A program made the translations under genes and the position numbers. From positions 420,001 to 452,000 of the forward strand of contig NC_000918.1 in NCBI RefSeq assembly GCF_000008625.1: a stretch of DNA of 32,000 bases, written 5' to 3'. This document shows positions 6,679 to 24,000 of the stretch, in pieces (position 1 is the stretch's first letter; every line of letters starts with the position of its first letter). This DNA is from Aquifex aeolicus VF5. Lineage in GTDB: Bacteria; Aquificota; Aquificia; Aquificales; Aquificaceae. The notes beneath the pieces were generated by a model. It worked only from the letters and a program-made list of their open reading frames with translations. It was not told where the DNA came from and did not search any database.

Positions 6679-7594
6679 AGTTTAGCCCTACACCGATGGA
6701 GTGCTGAACCATTTTCGTAGAGACTTCCCCGGCTCCCTGTGCGGCTTTAGCCGTAACAGTTTTGGGAAGAGCGTAAACGTAGGATAGATCTATATTGAAG
6801 TTGGGAGTAATCTTCCAGTTTAGACCCAAGGTTAAGTGGTGTTCCGCAAAAGCTGGGAAACCAACTAAGTTAAACCAGTAAAGTTGAAAGTCTGAAAACC
6901 GTGTATCAAAACTGGGAACACTATTTTTAGGTGTCATAGGATCTAAGTTATCCTTATCTCTTATGGGTGTCTTTCCGTAATTCCAACCAGCCCTGAGAGC
7001 CAAGCTGTCCATAGGCTTGTACTCTACACCGAGACCGAATACCCACTGATCCTCCCAGTCAAAGTCTCCGTATCCGTCAGCTCCGGACCAATCTATCCAT
7101 CTTATATCCAAACCGAGCTTAAGATTTTCAAGCGGTTTTACACCTATACCGAGCCCAACTTCTTGTGGTTGCTGTAATTTCATATCTTCAAACTTTCCGT
7201 CTCCATTTGAGTCAAATACATTTTTATACTTCATGGATACAGGAGACTGATACATCAAACCCGCGTATATAAAGTCTCCCATGTTAAAAGCTATTCCCAG
7301 AGAAACTCCAATTCCGAAGTCCTGAGACTGACCTCCCCCTGCATTCCAACATCTTGTAGGACTTGGCATCATGTCTCCATCGGTATCTTCAAATTGGCAC
7401 ATTTCAGCCCCTACATCCAGAGAACCCCAAGCTATGTGAAGTGCACCACCCACAGAAATCATTTCGTTAATCTTGTAAGAAACCGCAGGTGTTATTCTCA
7501 TGAACTGAAAGTTTGTATGCATCTTAGAAAGCGCATTAGTGTAATGTCCGGGAGGATTTTCAATTAGCTGTTTATCCCTGAAGTCTACACCCAT
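6668..7594 (-). CDS. FadL/OMPP1/TodX-family outer-membrane channel, C-terminal portion (downstream of an in-frame TAA)
   Basis: 308-aa ORF ending in the beta-barrel terminal ...GLNWAF, with alternating G/aromatic beta-strand patterns. The frame stays open upstream to 7633 and is contiguous with ORF 7634..8011 apart from one TAA. Confidence 0.75.
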   Translation of the reverse strand: MGVDFRDKQLIENPPGHYTNALSKMHTNFQFMRITPAVSYKINEMISVGGALHIAWGSLDVGAEMCQFEDTDGDMMPSPTRCWNAGGGQSQDFGIGVSLGIAFNMGDFIYAGLMYQSPVSMKYKNVFDSNGDGKFEDMKLQQPQEVGLGIGVKPLENLKLGLDIRWIDWSGADGYGDFDWEDQWVFGLGVEYKPMDSLALRAGWNYGKTPIRDKDNLDPMTPKNSVPSFDTRFSDFQLYWFNLVGFPAFAEHHLTLGLNWKITPNFNIDLSYVYALPKTVTAKAAQGAGEVSTKMVQHSIGVGLNWAF

Positions 7595-7633
7595 ACCAGA
7601 TACACCGAAAGCTCCTATACCAAGAGCAAGTCT

Positions 7634-8011
7634 TTAGTTTACCTTATGAACTATTCCTACTTCTGGAACTATGAAGGTATCAGCGTCACTCTTTACCCTA
7701 CCGTTGGTTTGGAAGTATCCACCTCCTCCGGAATTTCTTGGTTCAAAATCCATAAACATCTTGGAACTAACCTTTACATTAGGCATGAACAGGATTCCAC
7801 CGAAGCTAAGGAAAAACCTTTTAGTGTTGAAATAGGACATCCATGCTGGGTTTCTGAATATTGAGTCTATGGGTCCGACGGGCATTCCCGTTCCTATTCC
7901 ACCCATTCCCCTGGATGCGGGGCCTATTCCTATCATGTTGTCACCGTTTGTAGCTAAAGCAAAGGGAGCAAGCGCTAAAATAGACCCAATTACTGCAAAT
8001 TTCTTTTTCAT
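7634..8011 (-). CDS. FadL/OMPP1/TodX-family outer-membrane channel, N-terminal portion with signal peptide
   Basis: 125 aa. Signal peptide [20 protein letters not shown], then [11 protein letters not shown]...FRNPAW, typical of the FadL/Toluene_X N-terminus. It terminates at TAA 7634-7636, in frame with the downstream ORF. Confidence 0.75.
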
Positions 8012-8180
8012 CCCTCTACACCTCCTGTATTTTTCCTAACTTTTTATTAAAAAGTTTTGAAGGTAAACGTTGACTTAGTTTTTTCTTATACTTTTTAAAC
8101 CCCCATTTATATAAAAGTTTTAGAATATTAGATTGTTCTTATATTCACTTTGTAAGAATTCAAATCGTATAAAATTTTTT

Positions 8181-8187
8181 GAGGAGG
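8181..8187 (+). promoter_or_regulatory. Shine-Dalgarno GAGGAGG for the MoaD/ThiS-like gene
   Basis: GAGGAGG lies 6 nt upstream of ATG 8194. Confidence 0.7.
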
Positions 8188-8193
8188 TAGGAA

Positions 8194-8469
8194 ATGGCGG
8201 TAATAGTGAGGATACCCACACCCTTGAGAAGGTTAACCAACGGTCAAGGTGAGGTTGAAGTTGAAGCAAAAAGTGTAAGGGAAGCTATTGAAAAGCTGGA
8301 AGAGCAGTTTCCCGGTATAAAGGAAAGGCTTGTGGACGAAAACGGTGAGCTCAGGAAGTTTGTAAATCTCTACGTAAACGACGAAGACATAAGGTTTTTA
8401 AAGGGGCTTGATACAGAACTAAAAGACGGAGATACCCTCTCAATTGTCCCCGCCATCGCCGGCGGTTAA
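8194..8469 (+). CDS. MoaD/ThiS-family sulfur-carrier protein (beta-grasp, C-terminal GG)
   Basis: 91 aa ending ...LSIVPAIAGG. The di-glycine terminus and size are typical of MoaD/ThiS/CysO-type carriers. Confidence 0.75.
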   Translation: MAVIVRIPTPLRRLTNGQGEVEVEAKSVREAIEKLEEQFPGIKERLVDENGELRKFVNLYVNDEDIRFLKGLDTELKDGDTLSIVPAIAGG

Positions 8470-11400
8470 GCCTCCTTTATTATTTCTTCCAATCCTTCAT
8501 TTTTAAGGAAGAAAACCTCGGAAATACCTCCCCTTGCACTCACGCCTACAATCTTATCCGCAAAGGAGGTCACAACTTCTCTTAAGGTTACCACTATAAA
8601 CTGGGCTTCTTTTGACTTTTCTCTTATCAACTCACCCACTTTCTTAGCGTTAACCTCGTCAAGGTGGGCGTCTACTTCGTCAAAGTAGTAAAATGGAGAA
8701 GGTTTGTACTCCTGAAGGGCAAATATAAGAGAAAGAGCTGCTAAAGTTTTCTCCCCTCCCGACATCGCTTCGAGGTACTGGACGTCTTTCCCCCTCGGTT
8801 TTACGGTTAACTGAACACCTCCCGAAAAGGGATCTTCGGGATTGTCCAAGAACATCTGAGCTTTACCTCCCGGTGAGAGAAAAGAGAATATCCTTTTCAG
8901 GCTTTTATTTATCTGGTTAAAGGCTTCTAAGAAGACTTTTCTCTTTTTGTTTTCCGTCTCTTCTATTAACTTCTTTATAGCTTTGCTCTCTTCCTTTAGT
9001 TTTTGTTGCTTTTCTTTGTAGTCGTTAAAGCGTTTTAATTCTTCCGCGTAGTCTTCCTCCGCCCTGAAGTTCACACTCCCCAGCTTTTGTATTTCTTCCG
9101 TAACTCTTTTTAACTTCTCTTTAAGCTTGGGAATACTTTCTTCATCCGCTCCGAGTTTTAAGTCCTCGTATTCTTTAAGTTCTTCGTTTAAGTTCTCTAT
9201 TTTTTCTTCTAGTACCTTAAGGTTTTTCTCTTTTTCAAAGATTTTCTCTTTTAATTCTTCTTCTTTTATTTTTAATTTTCCGAGTTTTGATTTTAAATTA
9301 AGTATTTCCTTCTCGAGTTCTTCCTTTTGTTTTATGTAATCGTAAACCTTTACCTCTGCTTCCTTTACTTCCTGTAAGGTTTTTTCTTTAAAAAGGATCA
9401 AGTTTTCTATTTCTTTCTTTAGAGACTTTATTCTTTCCGTCAGGTACTCTCTTTCCCTTTCTTTTTCCTGTATTTCTTTCTCCAAGTATTCAAGCTCGTA
9501 GGTTTTTTTATTCAGTTCCCTTTCAATTTCGTTTAAAGACTTTTCTATTTCTGAAACCTGTTTCCTTACCTTTGAGTACTCCCTCCTCTTTTCCTCAACC
9601 CCTTCTCTGGAGTAGTGCCTCTTTATATCTCCTTCTTTGAGCTTTAAATTATTCAGCTTCTCCTCGTAGTACTCTATTTCTTCCGCCAATTCCTTTAACT
9701 TATCTTCTACATTTAAAAGCTTTTCTTCGAGTATTTTTAAGTATTCTTTTGAATTTTCGAGCTTTTCTTTAAACTTTTCTTCGTATTGCTCTAAGCCTTC
9801 AGAAGATAGTTCTTCTATTTTCCTTTCACTTACCTTTAAAAGCGCTGTCTTTTCCGAAATTAAGTTTCTTATTTCCCTTATTTTTTTCTGGATTATGCTT
9901 TCTTCATTTTTGAGCTTTTCCTCTTCTGCATTTAGTCTCTGGAGTTCTTCTTCATAGTAGCGTTTATTGAGTTCTCCCGAAGGCTTTACGGCTCCTCCCG
10001 TAATCACACCGCTTTTTTCAAAAAGCTCGCCTTCAAGCGTTACCATTCTGTAATTCCCTATACCTATTGCCTTTGCACTTTCAAAGTTTTCAACTATCAG
10101 CGTGTCTCCGAAGACGAACTTAACGACTTTCTCAAACTTCGGATCGTACTCCACGAGGTTTACCGCAAAGTCCACAGCCCCCTTTGTCCTCGGATACCTG
10201 AGAGGTCTTTCCTCAACCCTGACTCTATTCAGGGGAATAAAACTAAACCTTCCTAAGTTCATTCTCTTTGCAAGTTGTATGCACTCCTTTGCAACCTCTT
10301 CGTCTTCTACAACTATGAACTTTAGCCTTCCCCCGCCGGCTACCTCTATGGCGGTTATGTGCTCTGGATTTTTGACCCTTATAAGTTCACTTACGCTTCC
10401 GTAAACGCCTTTAATATCTTTAAAAACATCTGAAACGTCCGAAAAACTTCTTACTTCCCTTTCTATCGCACCCTTTTCCTTGAGTACTTCTTCAAGTTTT
10501 TTCCTGACTTCGCTTAATCTTTTTTCGTAAATGTTGAGTTCTTGCGTGAGATTTCTTAACTCTTCTTCTTCTTTCTTTTTAATTGCTTTTAGCCTTTTGA
10601 TTTCCTGTTCCTTTTCCTTAATTTCCTTGATTTTCTCTTCTCTTTCCGATATTAACTTGTTTATATCTTCCTTTATCCTTTCTATTTTGTTTTTTAAGTT
10701 TGCTCTTTGAATTTCTAACTCTTGTTTTTCTTTGTTAAGAGAGTTCAATTTTTCCGTTAATTTCTCCTTTTCTTCTTCAAGTTTTTTAACCTCGTCGAAG
10801 GTTATCTTTAGTCTTTCTTCTTCTTCTTCAAGTTCTCTCAATTTTTCCCTCTCAACTTCTTTTAAAGACTTATACTCTTCTTTGAGTTTTTCGAGTTCAA
10901 GTTGTAAAGTTCCTACCTCTCTTTCAAGATTTTCCTTATCACTCAAAAGGTTGTTTATTAATTCTTCAAGATTTTTAACTCTATTTTCGCTCTCTTTTAA
11001 TTCCCTTTCTTTTTCCTTTATACTCCTCTCTGCGTTTTCAATTTCCGCGGTAAACTTTCCCACTTTTTCTTTGAAGGGCATTATCTTTTCGTTTACTTCC
11101 TTTAAAAGTCTTTCTCTTTCATTTAATTCCTTTTCATTTTCCTGTATTTGGAAAGTTATATCTTCCAAACTTTCTCTCAAGGAGCTGAGTTCGTTTAAAA
11201 TTCTTTCCCTTTCTTTCAGGAGTTTTTCCTTTTCTTTTAGAAGTATTTTTGCTTCTGTTTCCCTCTTTATCCTTTGTAGTTCCTTAAATTTCTCAAGTTT
11301 TTCTTTTTCTTCCTTTAGTCTTTTCAATTGATTAGATATCTCTTCGAGTATGAGGTCTATTTCCTTTATTTTCAGTTCTACTTCCGCGAGTTCTTCTAAG

Positions 11401-11936
11401 GCTTTTTCCTTTTTCCTCTCGTATTCCCCTATTCCCGAAATTTCTTCAATTATTTTCCTCCTCTCTACGGGAGTCATCTTAAGGAACTTGACGATGTCTC
11501 CCTGATACACCACGTTGTAAGCGGTCTCGTATATACCCGCTTTTGCGAGGAAATCCTTCAAATCCCTCTCTCTTACTACCTGACCGTTTATTTTGAAAAT
11601 GCTCCTTCCGTCTTTTGAAACCTTTCTGGATATTACAACTTCTTCATCTTCTACAGGAAACGCTCCTAGGTTTTTGAAGTGAACTTCCACGTAGGCGTGA
11701 TCTGCTTTCTGACCGTTTTTGGAAAAAATTAAGTAACTTAAGTTCTTTGCCCTGAGTGCTTTTGCACTGCTAAGCCCGAGTGCAAAGGATATTGCGTCCC
11801 CTATGTTACTTTTTCCCGCACCGTTCGGGCCTACTACCGCTATAAATCCTTCACCGAGAGGTATTTCTTTCCTTTTTGTCCCGTAGGATTTAAATCCCTC
11901 CACTACTATCTTTTCTATGTACGCCCTTTTTTCCAT
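8466..11936 (-). CDS. smc: Chromosome partition protein SMC
   Basis: 1156 aa. N-terminal Walker A GPNGAGKSN, two long K/E-rich coiled coils flanking a hinge (GVYGSVSELIRV...), signature MSGGEKT and Walker B FYYFDEVDAHLD. Confidence 0.95.
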   Translation of the reverse strand: MEKRAYIEKIVVEGFKSYGTKRKEIPLGEGFIAVVGPNGAGKSNIGDAISFALGLSSAKALRAKNLSYLIFSKNGQKADHAYVEVHFKNLGAFPVEDEEVVISRKVSKDGRSIFKINGQVVRERDLKDFLAKAGIYETAYNVVYQGDIVKFLKMTPVERRKIIEEISGIGEYERKKEKALEELAEVELKIKEIDLILEEISNQLKRLKEEKEKLEKFKELQRIKRETEAKILLKEKEKLLKERERILNELSSLRESLEDITFQIQENEKELNERERLLKEVNEKIMPFKEKVGKFTAEIENAERSIKEKERELKESENRVKNLEELINNLLSDKENLEREVGTLQLELEKLKEEYKSLKEVEREKLRELEEEEERLKITFDEVKKLEEEKEKLTEKLNSLNKEKQELEIQRANLKNKIERIKEDINKLISEREEKIKEIKEKEQEIKRLKAIKKKEEEELRNLTQELNIYEKRLSEVRKKLEEVLKEKGAIEREVRSFSDVSDVFKDIKGVYGSVSELIRVKNPEHITAIEVAGGGRLKFIVVEDEEVAKECIQLAKRMNLGRFSFIPLNRVRVEERPLRYPRTKGAVDFAVNLVEYDPKFEKVVKFVFGDTLIVENFESAKAIGIGNYRMVTLEGELFEKSGVITGGAVKPSGELNKRYYEEELQRLNAEEEKLKNEESIIQKKIREIRNLISEKTALLKVSERKIEELSSEGLEQYEEKFKEKLENSKEYLKILEEKLLNVEDKLKELAEEIEYYEEKLNNLKLKEGDIKRHYSREGVEEKRREYSKVRKQVSEIEKSLNEIERELNKKTYELEYLEKEIQEKEREREYLTERIKSLKKEIENLILFKEKTLQEVKEAEVKVYDYIKQKEELEKEILNLKSKLGKLKIKEEELKEKIFEKEKNLKVLEEKIENLNEELKEYEDLKLGADEESIPKLKEKLKRVTEEIQKLGSVNFRAEEDYAEELKRFNDYKEKQQKLKEESKAIKKLIEETENKKRKVFLEAFNQINKSLKRIFSFLSPGGKAQMFLDNPEDPFSGGVQLTVKPRGKDVQYLEAMSGGEKTLAALSLIFALQEYKPSPFYYFDEVDAHLDEVNAKKVGELIREKSKEAQFIVVTLREVVTSFADKIVGVSARGGISEVFFLKNEGLEEIIKEA

Positions 11937-11950
11937 CAGATACGGATAAA

Positions 11951-12193
11951 TTATACTTCGTAAATTCTGTCAAGTAGTTCGTTAGCCTTTTCTTTGTCTA
12001 AGTTTCTCAGTTGTTTGTATACCTCCCTCGCTTTTTCAACTTTTCCCGCCCTTATGTAAGCAATTCCGAGCTTAAAAAGTAGTTCAGGATCTTTGGGATT
12101 TTTCTTTACCTCTTCTTCCAGTTCCTGGGCTAACTTCTCAACTAGCCCTTCCGCCATTTTGCTGAAAACGCCTTTTTTGCCAAACATCTTCAC
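11951..12193 (-). CDS. Small TPR-like helical protein (hypothetical)
   Basis: 80-aa ORF with an ATGA overlap to the upstream radical-SAM gene. LFKLGIAYIRAGKVEKAREVYKQL resembles one TPR unit. Confidence 0.5.
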   Translation of the reverse strand: MKMFGKKGVFSKMAEGLVEKLAQELEEEVKKNPKDPELLFKLGIAYIRAGKVEKAREVYKQLRNLDKEKANELLDRIYEV

Positions 12194-13143
12194 ACCCCGT
12201 ATTTATAAAACGGATACCTCGCACCTTGATATGTTCCCCTCCTTTCTAAGGTTTCCCTTACCTTCTGTATTACCGCATTTTTGTACTTGAAAGTACACCA
12301 CTCGGGAGCTATCAACCTCTCTTCGTCCGTTTCTCCGGTAATTCTGTGAACTACCATATCGGGCGGAAGTAGTTCTATCACGTCTGCACAGTACTCGGCG
12401 TACTCCTCAAGGGTAAGGGTTTTAAACTCTTCGTTTAAGTACTGCTTTTCCATGACCGTTCCCTTTATAACGTGAAGCGGATGTATCTTTATGCCATCTA
12501 TCGGAAGAGATGCTATGAGCTTTGCCGTTTCTATAAAGTCCTCCCTCGTTTCTCCGGGAAGTCCGATAATCATGTGTGCACACACTTTGAGGTTTCTCTT
12601 TTTCGTCCTAAGAACTGCATCCACGAAGTCGGAAACTCCATGCTGTCTGTTTATCTTCTTTAAGGTCTCGAAGTTTGCACTCTGGAGTCCGTACTCCACC
12701 CAAACCTCCAAGCCCTTGTTTGCGTAATACTCTAAAAGGTCGAGAACCTCTTCGGGAGCGCAGTCGGGACGCGTTCCCACGTCTATGCCTACAACGCCTT
12801 CAAACTTCAGGGCTGTATCGTAAACTTTTTTAAGTGTTTCTATATCCGCGTAAGTGTTCGTATAAGACTGGTAATAAATCGTAAAGTATATGTCCTCGCC
12901 GTACTTTTTCTTAGCCCTTTCAATACCTTCTTTTATTTGAACTTCTAAAGGGATTACAGGAGAAAGCATGGAAGGTTTTGAGCCGTCGTAGCAGTACGTA
13001 CAACCGCCCCTTCCCTTGGTTCCGTCTCTGTTCGGACACGTAAAGGGAAGTGCTACGGTTATCTTCTGTACCCTCTTCCCGTACTTTTCCTTGAAGTAGT
13101 CCTTAAGGGAGTAGTAGAGTCTTTGAGTCTTCACTTGAGCCAT
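12190..13143 (-). CDS. Radical SAM protein, TIGR01212 (YhcC-like) type
   Basis: 317 aa. Cys cluster FTCPNRDG...GGCTYC near the N-terminus, with length and layout typical of that subfamily (recalled). Confidence 0.7.
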   Translation of the reverse strand: MAQVKTQRLYYSLKDYFKEKYGKRVQKITVALPFTCPNRDGTKGRGGCTYCYDGSKPSMLSPVIPLEVQIKEGIERAKKKYGEDIYFTIYYQSYTNTYADIETLKKVYDTALKFEGVVGIDVGTRPDCAPEEVLDLLEYYANKGLEVWVEYGLQSANFETLKKINRQHGVSDFVDAVLRTKKRNLKVCAHMIIGLPGETREDFIETAKLIASLPIDGIKIHPLHVIKGTVMEKQYLNEEFKTLTLEEYAEYCADVIELLPPDMVVHRITGETDEERLIAPEWCTFKYKNAVIQKVRETLERRGTYQGARYPFYKYGV

Positions 13144-13159
13144 GATTTTATTAATTTAA

Positions 13160-15748
<2,589 letters not shown>

Positions 15749-15760
15749 AAAATTAATTTT

Positions 15761-15931
15761 ATGGTAGACAAAGAACTTCTCGAAATTCTCGCCTGTCCGA
15801 AGTGTAAGGGTGATTTAAAGTATGAGGAGGAAAAGGAAATCCTTATATGTGAAAAGTGTAAGGTTTATTACGAAATAAAGGAGGGGATACCTATACTTCT
15901 GCCCGAGTCTGCGAAACCTCTTTCAGGATAA
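15761..15931 (+). CDS. Trm112/YcaR-like (UPF0434) zinc-ribbon mini-protein, 56 aa; too short to appear in the ORF track
   Basis: My translation: MVDKELLEILACPKCKGDLKYEEEKEILICEKCKVYYEIKEGIPILLPESAKPLSG, stop TAA 15929-15931. It has two CxxC pairs and the family-typical LACP...GIP(I/V)(L/M)L pattern. Confidence 0.7.
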   Translation: MVDKELLEILACPKCKGDLKYEEEKEILICEKCKVYYEIKEGIPILLPESAKPLSG

Positions 15932-16256
15932 TTTCCTTTAATTCTTCTTCCCGATCCGTTGAGTAATCTGAAGGTATATCTTCTTGAAAGACCTTTTTAA
16001 AGTGAACGAACTTAACAGGTTTCCTGTACATCTTCCTGTAAGAGTAAACCATTTCCCAGTCCGCGTTGTTGTCACCGATGTAGAGTCCTTCCTGAGCACC
16101 GAGCATTTCCATACAGAGGTGAAGGGGGTAAGGGTGGGGCTTCCTTAAGTTCGGGTCTCCCACCTCGTCCTCGTCTATTATCGCTTCAAAGTACTTCCAA
16201 AGGTCAAACCTGTCAAAGAGGTACTTCAAATCCCTTCTCGGTCTTCCCGTGACCAC
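15891..16256 (-). CDS. HAD-superfamily hydrolase, C-terminal fragment (motifs II-IV)
   Basis: Begins VTGRPRR (motif II T/S-G) and contains K...GDNNADWEM (motifs III/IV). It is separated from the N-terminal fragment by an 11-bp tandem duplication. Confidence 0.7.
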   Translation of the reverse strand: MVTGRPRRDLKYLFDRFDLWKYFEAIIDEDEVGDPNLRKPHPYPLHLCMEMLGAQEGLYIGDNNADWEMVYSYRKMYRKPVKFVHFKKVFQEDIPSDYSTDREEELKEIILKEVSQTRAEV

Positions 16257-16579
16257 GCCATAACCACGCCATTTCTCTTCAAGCTTTCAAAGAACTCGGG
16301 TTTTAGTATTAACTCTTCTTTGTCTTTTAATTTGTCGTAATAGCCTTCGAAAACTTCTACGAGTTCCTTGTAATCCGGCGGTTTGTAGCCGAGGTTCTTT
16401 ATTAATTCGTAAGTAACGTCCCAGTCGTTGTTTATTCCGTTTTTAAATTTAAACTCCCGGATGTACGAAAGTTCCAGTTCTCTTCCGGTGAAGTGCTTTA
16501 TGGTTTCCTTTATTGCGTGGTGATAGGAATTCCTCACGTCTACAATTACTCCGTCCACGTCAAATATAGCTGCTTTCAT
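16226..16579 (-). CDS. HAD-superfamily hydrolase, N-terminal fragment (motif I plus cap)
   Basis: MKAAIFDVDGVIVDV is HAD motif I (DxDG). The ORF runs into the duplication at 16252-16273 and stops out of frame at 16226. Confidence 0.7.
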   Translation of the reverse strand: MKAAIFDVDGVIVDVRNSYHHAIKETIKHFTGRELELSYIREFKFKNGINNDWDVTYELIKNLGYKPPDYKELVEVFEGYYDKLKDKEELILKPEFFESLKRNGVVMAWSREDREGI

Positions 16580-17487
16580 ACCGTGAGCTCCACCTCTTTT
16601 GTTTTCTCAAGTAAGTACTGTATGAAGTTGCTCGCCAAGAAAGTGATAGTACTGTTTTTTGGATAAATTATGTGGAATCTCCTCTTTATTTCAAAACCTT
16701 TAATCTTAACGACTACTAAATTTCCCGCTTTTATTTCTCCGTTCAGTAATCCTTTAGACAGGAAAGAGCATCCGTAACCGTTTTTTACTATCTGTATTAT
16801 GTTTCTGCTGCTTGTTGATTCGATTTTTATGTTCAATTTATCGAACATTATTCCGAGTTCTTCGAGCTTTTCCCTCACGAGTTTCCTCGTTCCCGAGTGG
16901 GCTTCCCTCATAACGAGATCCAGTTCGTAAAGCCTTTCCGGTTCTATTTCTCCCTCCTTTGCTATCGGGTGTTCGGGATAAGTGAAAAATACTATCTCGT
17001 CCTCTAAAAAGGGAATATCAACGAATTTATCAGAAGGCTTTCTCTCTATTATTCCCACGTTCAGAACTCCGGAAACGAGTCCTTCTTCAACGTCGTGAGA
17101 GTTTCCCGTAAATATCTTTATCTTGGAACTTGGAAATTCCTTGTGAAATTCCGCTATTATCTTCGGGATTATGTACTCGCTGGGGGTTGCGCTGAGAACG
17201 AGGAATAGCGTATCTTTCAAATCTTTCTTTATCCTCGCTATTTCTTCCATAAGTCCTTCGTAACTGTTTAAAAGGAGTTTTGCTATTTCGTATATTCTCT
17301 TTCCCTCTTCAGTCAGGACCATCCTTCCGCCCTGTCTCTGGAAGAGTTTGGCTCCTACTGTTTTTTCCAGAGCTTTTATCTGCTGTGTTACTGCTGGTTG
17401 AGTTATGTATAAAACCTCCGATGCTTTTGAAAAACTTCCCAGCTCCGCGACGGTAACAAAAGTCTTGAGCTTAGAAATATCAATCAT
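16576..17487 (-). CDS. LysR-family transcriptional regulator
   Basis: 303 aa. N-terminal wHTH FSKASEVLYITQPAVTQQIKALE plus a C-terminal substrate-binding domain of typical length. It overlaps the HAD gene start by 4 nt. Confidence 0.9.
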   Translation of the reverse strand: MIDISKLKTFVTVAELGSFSKASEVLYITQPAVTQQIKALEKTVGAKLFQRQGGRMVLTEEGKRIYEIAKLLLNSYEGLMEEIARIKKDLKDTLFLVLSATPSEYIIPKIIAEFHKEFPSSKIKIFTGNSHDVEEGLVSGVLNVGIIERKPSDKFVDIPFLEDEIVFFTYPEHPIAKEGEIEPERLYELDLVMREAHSGTRKLVREKLEELGIMFDKLNIKIESTSSRNIIQIVKNGYGCSFLSKGLLNGEIKAGNLVVVKIKGFEIKRRFHIIYPKNSTITFLASNFIQYLLEKTKEVELTV

Positions 17488-17498
17488 CCTTATTAATT

Positions 17499-17513
17499 TT
17501 ATACCTCGGATAA
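17499..17513. promoter_or_regulatory. Candidate LysR-type box TTAT-N7-ATAA (T-N11-A class)
   Basis: TTATACCTCGGATAA lies 12 nt upstream of the lysR start. It has dyad arms TTAT/ATAA. The site is short and AT-rich, so it could occur by chance. Confidence 0.2.
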
Positions 17514-17557
17514 GAAATGTTTATGAGGGTTATAAAAAAGAAAAATGGAGAGAAAGA

Positions 17558-17938
17558 TTACCAGGTGAGAACTCTTCCCGCCTGACCGAGCGAAGGAAGT
17601 GCCTGGCTGGGTGTTAAAAGCGGTACGTCAAAGGCTAAGTCTTCCTTTGTCATTCCGTTGAGTTCTAAGGACTGGAGACATCCGACGAACTGAACACCGT
17701 TGTCCAATGCGAGTTCCATAAAGTCCTTGATGGTATTTCCTTCTTCCATGGGACGTATGCTTTCCGCAACGCCTTTCTTGAGAAGGAGTGTAGCTGGTCC
17801 GGTGAAGTACATGACCACGTTCATGTCAGCAGCAGCAGCGGTTGAAGCGAGGAAGAAAGCAGATGGAAGTCTCTTAGGATTTTCGGGACCTGTTATTAAT
17901 ATGATTACAAGATCAGCAGCTTGTTGTTGTTCGCTCAT
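17558..17938 (-). CDS. DsrE/DsrF-like sulfur-relay family protein
   Basis: 126 aa. The pattern LVIILITGP...FFLASTAAAADMNVVMYFTGP...VGCLQSL matches the DsrE-like fold with a conserved Cys (recalled pattern). An AAGGAGGTG SD precedes the ATG. Confidence 0.55.
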   Translation of the reverse strand: MSEQQQAADLVIILITGPENPKRLPSAFFLASTAAAADMNVVMYFTGPATLLLKKGVAESIRPMEEGNTIKDFMELALDNGVQFVGCLQSLELNGMTKEDLAFDVPLLTPSQALPSLGQAGRVLTW

Positions 17939-18037
17939 TCTTTCACCTCCTTAATAAGGAGTTTAATATATAAGAATGTTTAAAATCATCTAAAAAGATT
18001 TAATGGTAGTATAAACGGAACTTATAAAATACTTTCT

Positions 18038-18991
18038 TTGATGAAAATCTACTTAATGGGCTCGGACCAGAGGATAGTTAGGTGTGCGAGGGTGTCCTTT
18101 GCAAAGGACTCATATGTCGATGAAAAGAGGGACAAAAGACTCATTCGCTACCTCTTCAAGCACAGGCACGCGTCTCCCTTTGAGCACAACATCATTGCCT
18201 TTGAGTGGAAAAAGGAGAAGTGGATAGAACTCCTTTCAAAGCTGGAAAACCCTACCGTTCAGGTTTACTACTCAAATGGCTTTGTTTTTCTTAACTTAAG
18301 GAACGCTATCAACGTATGGGAACTTTTGCCCGACGCAGTCAAAGAAAGGATAAAGGAGGCTTTTCCTACCACTTACGGAGTAATTCAGCGGAGAGGGGAA
18401 ATTGAGGATGAGGAACTTTATTCCCTTCCCTACACTAAAGATAAAGCTTACGTAAAGGAAAAGATTGAGACGAGTTCTGGCTGGATCGGGCTTGTTGATA
18501 AGCTGGAACTGGAAACTGATATGGATTTTTACACTTTTGTGGTTGAATGCCCTCTTTTTGTAGCCCGTCAGTGGATGAGGCACAGGTTCGGCTCTTACAA
18601 CGAGGTTTCTAAAAGGTACGTGGGAAAGGAGTTTCTGGAATTTTATCTCCCTAAATACATAAGAAAGCAAGCGGAGAAAAACAAACAGGCTTCTGTGGAT
18701 GAACCTATTTCTGAGAGTGAAGTTTTTATAAAAAAAATAGAAAATTTGATAAGCAAAAGCGTAAAGCTCTACGAGGAGATAATAGAAAAGGGCGGTGCAA
18801 AAGAGCTCGCAAGGGGAGTGCTTCCCCAGTTTATGAAAACGAGGTTTTACTGGACCGTTCCGAGGATTTCTCTTGACAACTTCATAACCCTCAGAACTCA
18901 CGAAGGTGCACAAAAAGAGATAAGGGAATTTGCAGAAGCTATAAAGGAAATGGTAGGATACAGGGGAACTGATAAGAAGAACGTCATTTAA
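18038..18991 (+). CDS. thyX: Flavin-dependent thymidylate synthase ThyX (unusually long)
   Basis: ThyX signature RHRFGSYNEVSKRY (RHRxxSxxxxSxR), plus ARVSF...SPFEH and a C-terminal R..HEGAQ.EIR. The track start is TTG 18038. ATG 18041 is an equally likely start. Confidence 0.85.
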   Translation: MMKIYLMGSDQRIVRCARVSFAKDSYVDEKRDKRLIRYLFKHRHASPFEHNIIAFEWKKEKWIELLSKLENPTVQVYYSNGFVFLNLRNAINVWELLPDAVKERIKEAFPTTYGVIQRRGEIEDEELYSLPYTKDKAYVKEKIETSSGWIGLVDKLELETDMDFYTFVVECPLFVARQWMRHRFGSYNEVSKRYVGKEFLEFYLPKYIRKQAEKNKQASVDEPISESEVFIKKIENLISKSVKLYEEIIEKGGAKELARGVLPQFMKTRFYWTVPRISLDNFITLRTHEGAQKEIREFAEAIKEMVGYRGTDKKNVI

Positions 18992-19002
18992 AATTTGCTC
19001 TA

Positions 19003-20085
19003 TCAAGAAATCCCTTGAGTTCTTACAATTTTCTCTTTTTCGTCAACTTCAAAAATCTTTCCCAGAAACTGTTCACAAACCCATATATTTGTGAGGAGAT
19101 GCCCGGTAAACTGAGGAACTCTTATCTCACCTCCGACCAGAGCCATCAGAGGTATCAAGTGGTCCGCAAGGTGTCTGTCAACGGTGGCACCGGAGCTCCA
19201 GTCTTCGTGTAATTTTTTTACGGCCTCTGCTCCCACAACCTCTGCAAGCTTTCCCTTTTTACCCAGGTTATCCGCACCGAGAACGTTTCCTTTAGTGTCT
19301 TCAAGCCAGATGGTTATGCTCGTTCCTATTGAGTTTGCGTTTGCGTACTGTCTGTAAACCTCTGGTTCAGGGTAGCCTAAGTTTTTTAGAGCTTCTATAG
19401 CTCCCTTTGCCTGCCTTTCCGCCACTTTCCTTTCCCTTAACTCTTCGTGAGCCACGGAAAACACGTGAATTTTTCTAATCTCTCCTCTCTCAGTTCTGTA
19501 AAGGTTAACTTTATCTTTCAGGTATTCCTTCACTTCTTGTAAGTTTTCCGGCTGTTTTTCTAATTTGTTCCTTACGCTTAATTGGACAATCCCGCCACCC
19601 GCAGGGTAAAAGCCTCTCTTTAAAACTTCAAGTCTGATAAATTCGGGAACTTTGTAGATGTAGTGGAGAAATACGAACCTCACCCAGTCTATTGTCGGAC
19701 TTTTTGGTACGTCCGTTCCACCGATAACCTTTATCACTACTTCTCCGGGAACGAAAAGGGAGAGCGGAAGAATGGTTTGCAAGAAAAGAGGAATAGAACC
19801 TGCGGTGTCAAAGTTCACTTCGTAATAACCCGGTTTTAACTTTTGAGGTTTGTATTCAAGCTCAATAGAGCCGAGTTCGTCTCCCTTCACCTTTGCCTTT
19901 GCAAATCTTTTGAGAAGTTTTACTATGTTTAGGTGTTGTCTCTTGAGTCCAGGTTTTTCCCTTTTTGCCCTTATGTTGTAAATCCTTACGGGAACCTGTA
20001 GGAGTGTGCTTAAAAATAATGCCGTTCTTACTATCTGCCCTCCGCCTTCTCCGTACGAGCCGTCAAGCTCCAGAAACTCTCCCAT
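19003..20085 (-). CDS. rtcA: RNA 3-prime-terminal phosphate cyclase
   Basis: 360 aa. N-terminal [20 protein letters not shown] and the catalytic-His region [10 protein letters not shown] are typical of RtcA. Confidence 0.88.
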
Positions 20086-20090
20086 CTCCC

Positions 20091-20774
20091 TTAAATGTAT
20101 CTTCCTTCACTTTCCATTATTACTCTTATAACGTTTCCCTCCTTTTCAATTTTAGAAACTTTGTAGTCGTAGAAGTTTATCTTCTCAAGGGAATTCAGGT
20201 CCACGTTTTTCTCGACTATGTACCTCAGGGTGTAGGCCCTGTGAGGCATAGGGTTTACCACCTTCTTACCTTTTCTTATGTAATCAAACCTCACGAAGGT
20301 AACGTCTTCAGGGAAGGTTAGTGTTTCCCTCTGCTCTGTCGTTAAAAAGTCAAAAATTACAGAACTTTCAAACATCTTTTTAGATATGTCCTTTAAAACC
20401 TCTTTCCAGAACTCCGTTAGCTTTTTTCCTTTGTACTTGTCCTGAAAGGTTACCGAGTACCTCGGTATTGGGTCATTGACTCCGAGCATGCCAAAAAGCG
20501 GAGATATTATAATTCCCCTGTCTATTATGTTTTGTTGAACTTCGGGCGGAAGACACCAAAACTCAAGACTGTCCCAGAATTTCCCATTATACCTCCTCCA
20601 CGCGGGAGCAAGGGGTTTAGTTTCTACCTTGAAGTACTCTATTAATTCCTTTCTATAGGGATTCAGTTCAGGGAACCTGTTCTTTTCCCTGTTTTCCCAT
20701 ATTGAGAAGTAGTCCTCCTTTACGAGGTCCATCGTGGACTGCTTTTTCTCCGAAGGAAGCAGGTAAAAAATCAT
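20091..20774 (-). CDS. YaaA/DUF328-like (UPF0246) protein
   Basis: 227 aa. [30 protein letters not shown] and [13 protein letters not shown] parallel E. coli YaaA segments (MLSGLYGVLRPLD..PYRLEM, LYQFWGD, KKARGLMSRFIIE) recalled from memory. Confidence 0.5.
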
Positions 20775-20820
20775 GAGATTTATTTTAGCCCAAAAGAAGG
20801 CATGTTAAAATTTCCCTAAG

Positions 20821-22143
20821 ATGGAGCTTCACTTTGCGGATGAGCCATTAAAGGTAAGCGAAGAGATAAATAAAAGTATACTGGAAACACTCCAAGAGAA
20901 AGAACAAATAGAAGTTCGTGGGGATTACATAATATTTAAAAACTTTACTGGAGTTGTAGGAGATTGTTTGGTAATTCCACGAAAACTCGCAGAACACTTT
21001 AAGCTAATCAACGAAAGTGGTGAAAAAACGCAGAACTTTTACGAAAGGTATAAAGAATTATTTGGAAAATTCTTAAAGTATATCCTGAAAAAACTTGCTA
21101 AAGAGCACATAATTTATACCCTTAGCTTGTCCAGTTTTCCCGTTGATGAGAGTAAACTAAACGAAAGTAAAATCTTTAAACTCCTGGTTCTCTTAGAGAA
21201 AAAAGAAGAACTTATAAATTCCCTGCGTTTAATTTTGTCTATTCCGCACAAAAACTTGGTTGAATACGAAACTTATAAAAGTTTAAACGAGGTTAGTTAT
21301 GTTGATTCAAATGTAATTATTGATATAGTTCAGAATCCGGAAAAACTTTACGAAACGGAAAAGGGGATAATAGAACACGAAGGAAAGAGGTATTCCCCTA
21401 CCGCGGTTCTTCAATATGAGTTTGAGGAAAGTTTTGATACTCCAGAAAACAGGTTCGTTAAACACTTATTAAAGGAACTTGAAATCCTTTTGTCTGAAGA
21501 GCTAAAGGATTTCTTCTTCTTAGAAGAATTAAAAGAAATAAAAGAAGAAATAGAGTATACACTCCGGTCGGATGTATTTTCCGAAGTGGGAGACTTAAAC
21601 TTTTTCCCTTCAAATTCTCAGGTTTTGATGAAAAAAGCAGGATACAGGGAACTCTTCCAGATTTACAGGCTCTTGCACCTGTCCTTTGTTCCTAGAATTT
21701 TTGAAGATTTAGATTTAGCGTTCTCATTAAAAGATATGGCAACACTTTGGGAGTACTACGTTTTAATAGAGATTTTAAGGGAATTTAAAGAAAAGTTTGG
21801 AACTTACAAAGTGATAATTGATTTTGAGGAAAAAGTAGAAGGTAAAACGGTTTACGAAGAGGCACAGTTTAAATTTGAGAATGATTTAATCTTGTATTAT
21901 CAAAAGAGTCTTTATGCTTATTCTGGTTTACGCTTCAGACCGGATTTTTACGTGAAATTCAAAGACAACAGATTTATATTTGATGCAAAATTCAGGATAT
22001 TTGAAAATAATGAAAAGGATTTGCTTCAAAATATGCACTATTACAGAGACGGATTAAAAGTTACATCTGCCGTTGCTGTATGTTTTGGAGAAAAGAACAA
22101 AAGAGTTCTTTTTGGAAGACGGATGGAAGTAAAGAATCAATAA
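20821..22143 (+). CDS. McrC-like PD-(D/E)xK nuclease (DUF2357/DUF524-type architecture); the C-terminus probably continues to 22232 after a frameshift
   Basis: 440-aa ORF. Nuclease core RPDFYVKF...FIFDAKFR (D375, D388-A-K390), then MHYYRD. DTPENRFVKHLL is typical of McrC-like partners. Frame 0 stays open from about 22071 to TAA 22230-22232, overlapping the next ATG. Confidence 0.65.
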   Translation: MELHFADEPLKVSEEINKSILETLQEKEQIEVRGDYIIFKNFTGVVGDCLVIPRKLAEHFKLINESGEKTQNFYERYKELFGKFLKYILKKLAKEHIIYTLSLSSFPVDESKLNESKIFKLLVLLEKKEELINSLRLILSIPHKNLVEYETYKSLNEVSYVDSNVIIDIVQNPEKLYETEKGIIEHEGKRYSPTAVLQYEFEESFDTPENRFVKHLLKELEILLSEELKDFFFLEELKEIKEEIEYTLRSDVFSEVGDLNFFPSNSQVLMKKAGYRELFQIYRLLHLSFVPRIFEDLDLAFSLKDMATLWEYYVLIEILREFKEKFGTYKVIIDFEEKVEGKTVYEEAQFKFENDLILYYQKSLYAYSGLRFRPDFYVKFKDNRFIFDAKFRIFENNEKDLLQNMHYYRDGLKVTSAVAVCFGEKNKRVLFGRRMEVKNQ

Positions 22144-22222
22144 ATTTATTTTCTGAATTAATAGAAAATAATTTTGACGGAGTAGGGTATATTGATTTAA
22201 AATTAGATATGGGGGATTTTAA

Positions 22223-22543
22223 ATGGAACTAAAACCTAAGTTCATTATAAAGATAACTTCCAAATCATTGGAAAATTTCAGAAAAACCGTATTAGAAGGT
22301 ATTGAAAAGGAAGGAGAAAAGAAGTATTTTTGGAATATCTACAGTTATTGTGGAAATTTTAATTCAAATGATGTAGTATTATTTATTGCTGAAAAACATC
22401 CAGCTGTACTCGGACAAATTATAAAAACAGCGAATGGTGATGAATTTTATAATGAACGTTTAAAGAAAGAATGGAAAGATAAAAAGGGTAGATTTAAAGC
22501 ATATTTTGAATTTAAAAAAAATAAAAGAAATAAGTCTTCCTGA
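22223..22543 (+). CDS. Small ORF, probably the detached N-terminal (possible PUA-like reader) domain of the McrB-like NTPase
   Basis: 106 aa. It ends 22 nt after an A8 run (22514-22521), where removing 1 nt fuses it in frame to ORF 22506..23915. NDVVLFIAEKHPAVLGQI and ...AYFEFKK(I)KEISLP loosely resemble EVE/ASCH-type beta-barrels. Confidence 0.5.
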   Translation: MELKPKFIIKITSKSLENFRKTVLEGIEKEGEKKYFWNIYSYCGNFNSNDVVLFIAEKHPAVLGQIIKTANGDEFYNERLKKEWKDKKGRFKAYFEFKKNKRNKSS

Positions 22544-23915
22544 GGAAATTACAAAAAGTCTGTTATCGGAACATCAAGGCAGGAGAGTGTGTAAAAAATT
22601 TGATCAATTTTCAAAAGAAAATCAAGAAAAACTTTTAAATTTCCTTTCAAAGGAAATCTCAAATATGCAGGAAGCTACAAGAATAGAAACAGGCCAACAG
22701 GAAAAAGGAACTTGCTTAAAAAATTCTTCTTTAAAGTTAGATAGTCATATCGTAAACTCTTTCTACAACGCCTTAAAGACAAAAGGTTTCGTAATACTTG
22801 CAGGACTTTCTGGAACAGGAAAAACTAAGATTTTTGAAGAATTTGTAAAGTGTTTTCCCGAAAATCACAATCTCTTCTTCCCCATTCGTCCTGACTTTAA
22901 AGACTCTAAATCTCTACTCGGATATTACAACCCACTAAAAGGAGAATACCATTCAACTCCCTTGTTAGAATTCATTTTGGAAGCTTCAAAGAACTACCTA
23001 GAAAAAGGTAAAAATGCGGACACATTTTTCGTATTGTTTGACGAAATGAATTTAGCGAGAGTTGAGTATTATTTTGCAGACTTTTTATCAGTTTTAGAGG
23101 CAAAAAGATTTGAAAATAAAGATGAAGCAGTTAAAACTAATAGTTTTAATGAGTTTTTAGAAAGCTTAGAAAAAGATTTATCAGTATTAAACGAAGAAAA
23201 CTATAAATTTACATCTCAAAGCATAAAACTACACAACGAAGATACAAAAGACGTTCCAAAAGAACTATTTTTACCACCAAACCTTTATTTTATTGGGACG
23301 GTCAATATTGATGAAACTACTTACATGTTTTCTCCAAAAGTTTTGGATAGAGCATTTACAATAGAGTTTGACGTCGGAAGTTTTAAAGATTATTTAGAAT
23401 TTTTAAAAGCAAATTCAGATGATGAGAATTCAAACATAGATGAAAATCTGAAAGAAGATTTTATTAATAAAGGTGAGTTTGCAGTTATTGACAAACAAAA
23501 GATAAAAGAATTCTTTGAAAATGAAGAAAATAAAAAATATTTAAAAGATCTTGAGGAAATAAATAATACTCTAAAAAGGTTTGGTTTACATTTCGGATAC
23601 CGTGTATTTGACGAGATTGTTATGTTCCTGTATAACTCACAAAACTCCTACTTTAAATTTGAAAACTTAGATGAAGCGTTTGATTTGGCCGTTAAAATGA
23701 AAGTTCTTCCCAAGTTCCACGGAACAAGGCAAAGATTAGAAAAGCCTGTTGTTGAATTACTCAACAAACTTGGTGTGAAAAACCCTGAAGAAAAAATTAC
23801 AGATGGAATACCGCCAATAGATGAAATTGCTGAAACTCAATTCAAACACACAGTTCACAAACTCCTAGAAATGTTTTACAAACTGAAAACTCAGGGATTT
23901 GCTTCCTTCTTATGA
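22506..23915 (+). CDS. McrB-like AAA+ (AAA_5/COG1401-type) NTPase
   Basis: Walker A GLSGTGKTK. RPDFKDSKSLLGYYNP...Y.STPLLEF. Walker B with the McrB-type extension FFVLFDEMNLARVEYYFADFLSVLE. FIGTVNIDETT...PKVLDRAFTIEF parallels the McrB GTMNxxDRS...RRF region. The track start is TTG, inside the previous ORF. Confidence 0.7.
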   Translation: MNLKKIKEISLPEEITKSLLSEHQGRRVCKKFDQFSKENQEKLLNFLSKEISNMQEATRIETGQQEKGTCLKNSSLKLDSHIVNSFYNALKTKGFVILAGLSGTGKTKIFEEFVKCFPENHNLFFPIRPDFKDSKSLLGYYNPLKGEYHSTPLLEFILEASKNYLEKGKNADTFFVLFDEMNLARVEYYFADFLSVLEAKRFENKDEAVKTNSFNEFLESLEKDLSVLNEENYKFTSQSIKLHNEDTKDVPKELFLPPNLYFIGTVNIDETTYMFSPKVLDRAFTIEFDVGSFKDYLEFLKANSDDENSNIDENLKEDFINKGEFAVIDKQKIKEFFENEENKKYLKDLEEINNTLKRFGLHFGYRVFDEIVMFLYNSQNSYFKFENLDEAFDLAVKMKVLPKFHGTRQRLEKPVVELLNKLGVKNPEEKITDGIPPIDEIAETQFKHTVHKLLEMFYKLKTQGFASFL

Positions 23916-23923
23916 AGATTAAG

Positions 23924-24000
23924 TGGTGTGCCCGGCGGGACTCGAACCCGCGACCTCGAGATTAGGAATCTCGCGCTCTATCCGCCTGAGCTACGGGCAC
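23924..24000 (-). tRNA. tRNA-Arg (anticodon CCU), CCA encoded
   Basis: The reverse complement folds as a cloverleaf: GTGCCCG TA GCTC AGGCGGATA GAGC G CGAGA TTCCTAA TCTCG AGGTC GCGGG TTCGAGT CCCGC CGGGCAC A CCA. Confidence 0.93.

Follow-up and report, generated by a model that had tools for sequence, protein, structure and literature searches.

A probably recently pseudogenised McrBC-like restriction module with frameshifts in both genes of Aquifex aeolicus VF5

The Type IV restriction system TgMcrBC of Thermococcus gammatolerans (PDB 6UT5; N-domain 6P0F and 6P0G) comprises an N-terminal YTH-like reader fused to a McrB AAA+ NTPase, accompanied by a McrC partner with a DUF2357 domain and a PD-(D/E)xK nuclease. 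Its N-domain has a YTH fold that targets 6mA DNA (Niu et al. 2020, PMC7680126), unlike the PDB title of 6P0G, which names m5C DNA as the bound ligand. More generally, among defence architectures that contain EVE, the commonest is fusion of a PUA-like reader (EVE/YTH/ASCH superfamily) to the N-terminus of McrB (Bell et al. 2020, BMC Biol, PMC7641849). A further branch of the McrB family carries a sensor motif shortened to NxD and followed by Glu, together with a DUF2357-type McrC partner, and no NxD McrB has been characterised so far (Bell, Koonin et al. 2024, eLife, PMC11090510). A locus of A. aeolicus VF5 resembles these systems and lies in a 32,000-nt stretch of DNA (hereafter the window), with the following features:

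20821 to 22232, + strand: mcrC-like nuclease gene (DUF2357 + PD-(D/E)xK); the annotated VF5 ORF stops at 22143 (440 aa)
21088 to 21093, + strand: A6 run in the mcrC-like gene, in frame in VF5, A5 in assembly ERR15087784
22104 to 22105, + strand: VF5-specific 1-nt deletion, a single G at 22105 against GG in ERR15087784
22223 to 22543, + strand: ORF1 (106 aa, WP_164930632.1), residues 1-98 of a predicted YTH-like reader domain, then 8 out-of-frame residues and a stop
22506 to 23915, + strand: ORF2 (469 aa, aq_647 / O66887 / WP_010880385.1), last third of the predicted reader domain, linker and McrB-like AAA+ NTPase
22511 to 22521, + strand: frameshift site TTT + A8, where one surplus base (T or A) sets the two frames apart
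23924 to 24000, - strand: tRNA-Arg(CCT), with the low-GC mcrBC-like island ending directly at its 3′ end

The NTPase encoded by ORF2 is identical to the A. aeolicus VF5 'McrB family protein' (AAC06851.1 / WP_010880385.1 / O66887, aq_647). Its Walker A (GLSGTGKT) and Walker B (FDEMN, within FVLFDEMN) motifs are the expected AAA+ motifs and are invariant in alignments of the homologues. Pfam AAA_5 scored 21.2 bits against ORF2, slightly below the 22-bit cut-off, and PADLOC PDC-M26A matched it with an E value of 1e-49. As a single-sequence query against the PDB the NTPase returned no match. With a family profile, homology to a characterised McrB was found, TgMcrB being matched by 6UT5 (E 4e-13, N-domain included) and 6UT3 (E 6e-8); E. 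coli McrB reached E 0.2 at best. The sensor motif of ORF2, PPNLYFIGTVNIDETT, aligns to PPNLYIIGTMNTADRS of TgMcrB and is one residue shorter, reading VNIDE (NxD then E) against MNTADR (NxxD). The NxxD signature is therefore absent, and ORF2 belongs to the NxD branch of McrB and not to the canonical NxxD McrBs. GTVNIDETT is found in ORF 22506..23915 at window positions 23270-23290, and relatives from Thermococcus, Methanocaldococcus, Persephonella and Desulfurobacterium are likewise of the NxD branch. Two close homologues, P0002 and P0005, carry an insertion of ~130 residues just after the NTPase Walker A region (alignment columns ~240-370); inserts are frequent in McrB GTPase domains (Bell et al. 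2024, PMC11090510).

Immediately upstream lies a 440-aa ORF (O66886 / WP_010880384.1), annotated as a 'DUF2357 domain-containing protein'. ORF 20821..22143 matched Pfam DUF2357 with an E value of 2e-66 and PDDEXK_7 weakly, and contains the nuclease motif RPDF...FDAKFR; nothing was found for this protein in PADLOC or NCBIfam. An adjacent McrC partner with a DUF2357 N-domain and a PD-(D/E)xK nuclease (PDF...DAK) is hence present, as in TgMcrBC. Adjacent mcrC-then-mcrB pairs in the same order also occur in three homologous loci (L002, L003 and L005). In the metagenomic locus L005 (1-4273), the McrC/McrB pair is found beside contractile-injection-system or phage-tail-like genes (sheath, tube, gp19-like).

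The locus differs from the described systems in several respects. Similarity to TgMcrB is remote (~22 % identity in the N-domain, with an NxD sensor in A. aeolicus against NxxD in TgMcrB), and the locus departs from TgMcrBC in having the gene order mcrC then mcrB and in being a frameshifted copy. It is without the long coiled-coil, HEPN, Hsp70-like and FtsB-like parts of CoCoNuT and CoCoPALM, and is therefore neither; instead, the A. aeolicus protein has a small modular reader domain like those of canonical McrBs. The architecture matches the EVE/YTH-McrB fusions (Bell et al. 2020, PMC7641849), a PUA-like reader standing N-terminal to McrB, but the A. aeolicus N-domain belongs to a rare subfamily without a Pfam match.

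A first-pass annotation of the window had noted an A8 tract in the overlap of ORFs 22223..22543 and 22506..23915. Both the overlap and the coordinates are borne out by the sequence, which reads ...TAT TTT GAA TTT AAA AAA AAT AAA AGA AAT AAG TCT TCC TGA... around the junction, the A8 being exactly 22514-22521. ORF1 ends in ...AYFEFKKNKRNKSS followed by its stop, and ORF2, from its TTG start, begins (M)NLKKIKEISLPEE. The ORF2 frame is +1 relative to that of ORF1, so that removal of one base yields a fused protein of 563 aa with the junction peptide ...AYFEF/LKKIKEISLPEE...; fusion is possible by any net loss of 1 nt from 22464, where the ORF2 frame has passed its last upstream stop, to 22540. 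When five homologues were compared with the locus by tblastn, similarity followed the frame of ORF1 between 22229 and ~22516-22519, and that of ORF2 starting at ~22506, which places the change of frame at TTT + A8. For ORF1 an SD is plausible, GGGGGA lying 6 nt ahead of its ATG. The sole SD-like element before the TTG of ORF2 is AAAGGG, ~14 nt upstream, and a well-placed SD is absent. Apart from this site ORF2 is uninterrupted over 1.4 kb in a 30 % GC background and keeps every residue that is invariant in the family.

Loss of one A had been proposed as the change that would fuse the two ORFs. This holds, but not as a unique route, since loss of one T from 22511-22513 is equally good. With the T deleted, the protein reads ...YFELKKIKE..., with Leu as in every aligned homologue, whereas deletion of an A leaves Phe where all aligned homologues show Leu (YFEF vs YIEL). 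At the same place the homologous locus L003 has TT + A8 in frame (GAA TTA AAA AAA ATA AAA GAA); removal of the T from the A. aeolicus sequence gives GAA TTA AAA AAA ATA, which is the L003 sequence, and puts the A8 in the same phase as the A8 runs of the ligA and thyX genes of the window. Judged from these alignments, a single event TT to TTT would explain the site more parsimoniously than a Leu to Phe substitution followed by A7 to A8. On the other hand, slippage at a 7-mer homopolymer is far more frequent than at a 2-mer. The surplus base may be a T of the TTT or an A of the run.

Over its full length, junction included, the repaired 563-aa protein can be aligned with P0004 (559 aa, Desulfurobacterium), P0006 (582 aa) and P0008 (612 aa), and by local HMM comparison also end to end with P0002 (691 aa) and P0005 (752 aa). 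For example, GRFKAYFEFKKIKEISLPEEITKSLL of A. aeolicus aligns with ERFKTYIELEKISELNLPHPLLDEIL of P0002 across the junction. The length of about 560 aa expected on deletion of one base is thus close to the mark, and the product is colinear with intact homologues of 559-752 aa. An exhaustive search of 1.84 billion representative proteins with a profile of the N-terminal 147 residues matched four proteins; three were fused proteins of 559-752 aa and the fourth was the 106-aa A. aeolicus fragment. No standalone N-domain was found among these 1.84 billion proteins, and wherever a homologue has this N-domain it is encoded as one uninterrupted ORF, the split arrangement being absent throughout. A word-indexed protein search with the N-domain alone returned nothing beyond the A. 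aeolicus fragment. A scan of genome contigs gave six distant loci and no Aquifex relatives, A. aeolicus itself not being among the matches. The architecture put forward at first, an N-terminal accessory domain and an AAA+ NTPase in one protein, is the one seen in the homologues, which are fused across the junction; homologues encoding the small protein and the NTPase separately, which would have spoken against it, were looked for and none was seen. These alignments support the view that a single ancestral gene, encoding a reader-type N-domain and a McrB-like NTPase, has come apart into ORF1 and ORF2.

The N-domain itself gave no Pfam match; the 106-aa ORF produced Pfam noise below threshold alone, and PADLOC and NCBIfam searches with it were empty. 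An AF2 model of repaired residues 1-147 was obtained with a pLDDT of 92.7 and a pTM of 0.88. The top Foldseek matches of this model were 6P0G and 6P0F, the T. gammatolerans McrB N-domain (E ~3e-5, TM 0.61-0.64), followed by the ASCH structure 5Y6C (E 3e-3) and by YTHDF2, the Mmi1 YTH domain and the EVE structure 2EVE at E 0.01-0.05. The model is thus a PUA-like beta-barrel resembling solved YTH, EVE and ASCH domains. Its best matches, 6P0F and 6P0G, suit the earlier label of 'reader domain', the predicted fold being that of a YTH-like reader of modified bases. W37 and W84 are invariant in the N-domain subfamily and align with Trp residues of TgMcrB, as judged by sequence alignment alone. The subfamily is rare, with four representatives in 1.84 billion proteins.

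It had been assumed that the A8 separates a reader-domain ORF from the NTPase. However, the model places strand 93-103 ahead of a helix, a short strand and a long helix to residue 146, and the frame breaks at residue 98/99, within this predicted core beta-strand of a ~147-residue domain. The break therefore cuts the reader domain itself and not a linker. By this model the 106-aa product is predicted to be a truncated reader domain that ends in 8 out-of-frame residues.

The frameshift is genuine and common to the sequenced lineages. Over 16,422 nt, tract included, the Logan assembly SRR29904085 shows no difference from the window, and SRR29904083 has the same 440/106/469-aa gene calls. ERR15087784 shows 9 differences from the window in 15.5 kb (6 substitutions and 3 indels) and keeps the A8. 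Of its three indels, two reinstate a reading frame, one at the mcrC C-terminus and one in a HAD hydrolase at 16257, and its A7/A8 runs all agree with those of the window. Both facts speak against a noisy platform; the variants are probably not noise, yet could include some assembly errors. Four of the nine differences (binomial p = 0.006), and two of the three indels (p = 0.023), fall in the 1.4-kb mcrC-like gene out of the 15.5 kb compared.

A closer inspection of the mcrC-like gene reveals that it is frameshifted in both lineages, at different places. The ancestral reading runs on in another frame to a stop at 22230-22232, overlapping the ATG at 22223. This C-terminus, in frame 0 (FWKTDGSKESINLFSELIENNFDGVGYIDLKL...), matches those of the homologues in L002, L003 and L005, where the conserved ending is ...FWK.DG...GVGYLDLKI. 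In VF5 the deletion at 22105 puts the last ~38 codons out of frame, with loss of the conserved C-terminus. In ERR15087784 the gene stays in one frame near 22105 (P0125 reads ...GEKNKRGSFWKTDGSKESINLF...), and a contraction of A6 to A5 at 21088-21093 splits the gene into 96 + 368 aa. The mcrB frameshift is therefore common to both lineages, whereas the mcrC frameshifts are private and different. A T6 to T5 contraction at 22109-22113 was considered as the cause of the VF5 frameshift and was ruled out by GG vs G at 22105 in the comparison with ERR15087784.

We consider the locus a recently pseudogenised Type IV (McrBC-like) restriction module and not a programmed switch, an ordinary kind of event, and put the probability of this at roughly three in four. 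The stretch 20821-23915 would be a horizontally acquired two-gene Type IV (McrBC-like) module, a McrC-like nuclease followed by a YTH-reader McrB-like NTPase of the NxD branch. A 1-nt insertion at TTT + A8 (22511-22521) would first have broken the mcrB-like gene, midway through a core beta-strand of the reader domain. Standard decoding would then give a truncated reader of 106 aa and at most a weakly initiated NTPase without a complete DNA-recognition domain, and a module without a complete reader would be unable to find its target. After this common mcrB lesion, separate 1-nt deletions would have arisen in the mcrC-like gene of the two close lineages. Pseudogenisation is favoured because the partner gene has independent frameshifts in two lineages, and the pattern of a common first lesion and private second lesions suggests that the module is no longer under selection. 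A frame disrupted with respect to intact orthologues is here combined with further lesions in the module, and early pseudogenisation, one of the options raised at the outset, is the one that the common mcrB and lineage-private mcrC frameshifts favour. A single frameshift in an otherwise intact NTPase ORF fits very recent decay, and no less so ongoing selection, provided that full-length protein is still produced in some amount. The truncation of the VF5 mcrC product (last ~38 residues) might be tolerated, which would count against decay.

The best surviving alternative, which we regard as unlikely, is adventitious or programmed recoding. RNA polymerase slippage on A8/T8 would give A7 transcripts, or a +1 slip of tRNA-Lys on AAA AAA A would shift the ribosome, and either would supply a small amount of full-length reader-NTPase and so hold a potentially self-toxic restriction system in check. 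The frames overlap exactly at the A8, loss of one base restores the full protein and the downstream 469-codon ORF is still intact. Moreover, productive slippage is known on runs of 8-9 A, and here, as in other genes disrupted at A/T runs, an mRNA with one A fewer or more would be back in frame (Baranov et al. 2005, PMC1088944). Cases include the A9 of Thermus thermophilus dnaX, the A8 of D. radiodurans and Nostoc IS elements, and ~10 % correction at the A8 of human apoB (PMC1088944). However, selection against A/T runs typically sets in at 9 nt, even if some IS elements make productive use of A8 (Baranov et al. 2005, PMC1088944). The A. aeolicus run, at 8 nt, falls short of this length, homologues do not conserve the site, and the operon partner is broken too.

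The arrangement is not conserved, every homologue with the N-domain being a single ORF; the out-of-frame arrangement with its slippery site does not recur in the orthologues, and the A8 of L003 is in frame. No significant RNA structure was found around the shift site (fold against shuffled sequence, z = -0.38) and no Rfam element matched. The few nt around the site hold no SD-like element, and AAU, the A-site codon that follows, is not a stop; the stimulatory elements expected of a programmed frameshift (an SD-like element, a slow A-site codon or RNA structure) were accordingly not found. There are three A8 runs in the window, so the tract, although put forward at first as a classic slipped-strand site, is not itself unusual. 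The other two are in frame in intact ligA (14827-14834, GCA AAA AAA ATA) and thyX (18730-18737, ATA AAA AAA ATA), in the same phase NNA AAA AAA ATA (x-K-K-I), and are unchanged in ERR15087784. This genome therefore shows neither avoidance nor visible instability of A8, and efficient slippage on such a run would harm the essential ligA and thyX with their identical runs. Lastly, the partner nuclease gene is itself frameshifted in both lineages, at non-slippery sites. The earlier suggestion of programmed +1 frameshifting is thus disfavoured. Low-level rescue by A8 slippage is possible and finds no support here. A more specific form, which we find rather less plausible, would make the A8 a built-in throttle: at about 85-95 °C RNA polymerase or the ribosome would slip, and a trickle of full-length YTH-McrB would keep self-toxicity tolerable. 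If true, this would be a recoding-controlled restriction system in a hyperthermophile, from the uncharacterised NxD clade.

Phase variation is very unlikely. Here replication slippage between A8 (OFF) and A7 (ON) would produce subpopulations expressing the Type IV system, and the locus does offer a homopolymer at which a one-step contraction restores the frame. Restriction genes are often phase-variable loci in other bacteria. However, A8 stands in the consensus sequences of all four assemblies, which represent two lineages with three other indels between them in 15.5 kb, so the comparison of tract length proposed at the outset gave no variation. The ligA and thyX A8 runs are invariant too, and eight A/T bases are short for a hypermutable tract. 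The ON state would also need repair of the mcrC-like gene (at the G1/G2 site in VF5 and the A5/A6 run in the other lineage), and the fused 563-aa protein is absent from a collection of 15 billion proteins. Neither the junction pattern with 6-11 bases at the tract nor the N-domain protein was matched in JGI metagenomes; these are uninformative on A7 because the scans met no A. aeolicus-like copy there, whatever the tract length. The phase-variable switch that had been raised is disfavoured by the equal tract length in the two lineages (consensus sequences) and the stable ligA and thyX runs.

It is still less probable that the split is functional, with the 106-aa protein as one working subunit and the NTPase, initiated on its own, as the other. 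In RefSeq both ORFs are annotated as proteins, and ORF1 has a plausible SD. E. coli McrB-S is without the DNA-binding domain, and LlaI is a three-gene system with a separate DNA-binding module, so that a split of this kind has parallels. There are precedents both for McrB products that lack the N-domain and for DNA-binding subunits that stand apart (10.64898/2026.08.31.748284). Against this, the cut falls in a beta-strand of one compact domain, so neither product would be a complete reader fold; ORF1 closes with 8 out-of-frame residues, the TTG start of ORF2 has no well-spaced SD, the homologues are all unsplit, and the small protein has no standalone counterpart among the 1.84 billion proteins searched.

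That the 1998 reference genome is in error and the real gene intact can be dismissed, common as homopolymer length errors are, because three separately assembled, independent read sets (SRR29904085, SRR29904083 and ERR15087784) agree on the A8 and the 106/469-aa split, the last of them while differing from the reference at 9 nearby positions; this refutes the option in the first-pass annotation, except for a systematic homopolymer artefact common to all three.

Recent decay of the module has practical value chiefly for annotation. RefSeq and UniProt list three intact proteins (WP_010880384.1, WP_164930632.1, WP_010880385.1 / O66886, O66887), which are really two frameshifted genes, and expression of aq_647 for structural work would produce an NTPase whose reader domain is mutilated. 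Once repaired, the sequence represents the NxD-branch McrBs in a compact, thermostable form and could be a useful template if resurrected. The two lineages also provide a small, clean case of the stepwise decay of a defence island, with a common first lesion and independent second lesions. Knowledge of frameshifting or of restriction biology is unchanged by these results. A search of the literature on aq_647, aq_646 and O66887 found no relevant paper.

The GC content of the mcrBC-like module is 27-33 % (20900-23900), against 40-48 % in the flanks. With this low GC and the abutting 3′ end of tRNA-Arg(CCT), the module looks like a small acquired island, as far as base composition and position go. 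Neither att-like direct repeats between the tRNA-Arg 3′ end and the other island border nor an integrase were found, and a scan for promoters and terminators gave counts at or below the shuffle expectation. All 9 differences between VF5 and ERR15087784 lie within 6.5 kb (15672-22219), with zero in the adjoining 8.1 kb (7559-15671), which holds the SMC, ligA and radical SAM genes. A HAD-family hydrolase gene at 15891-16579 (- strand) is read as 117 + 121 aa in VF5 (the window and SRR29904085) and as a single ORF of 229 aa in ERR15087784, which has one more C at 16257 (CCACGCCC vs CCACGCC). This split is another genuine VF5 frameshift.
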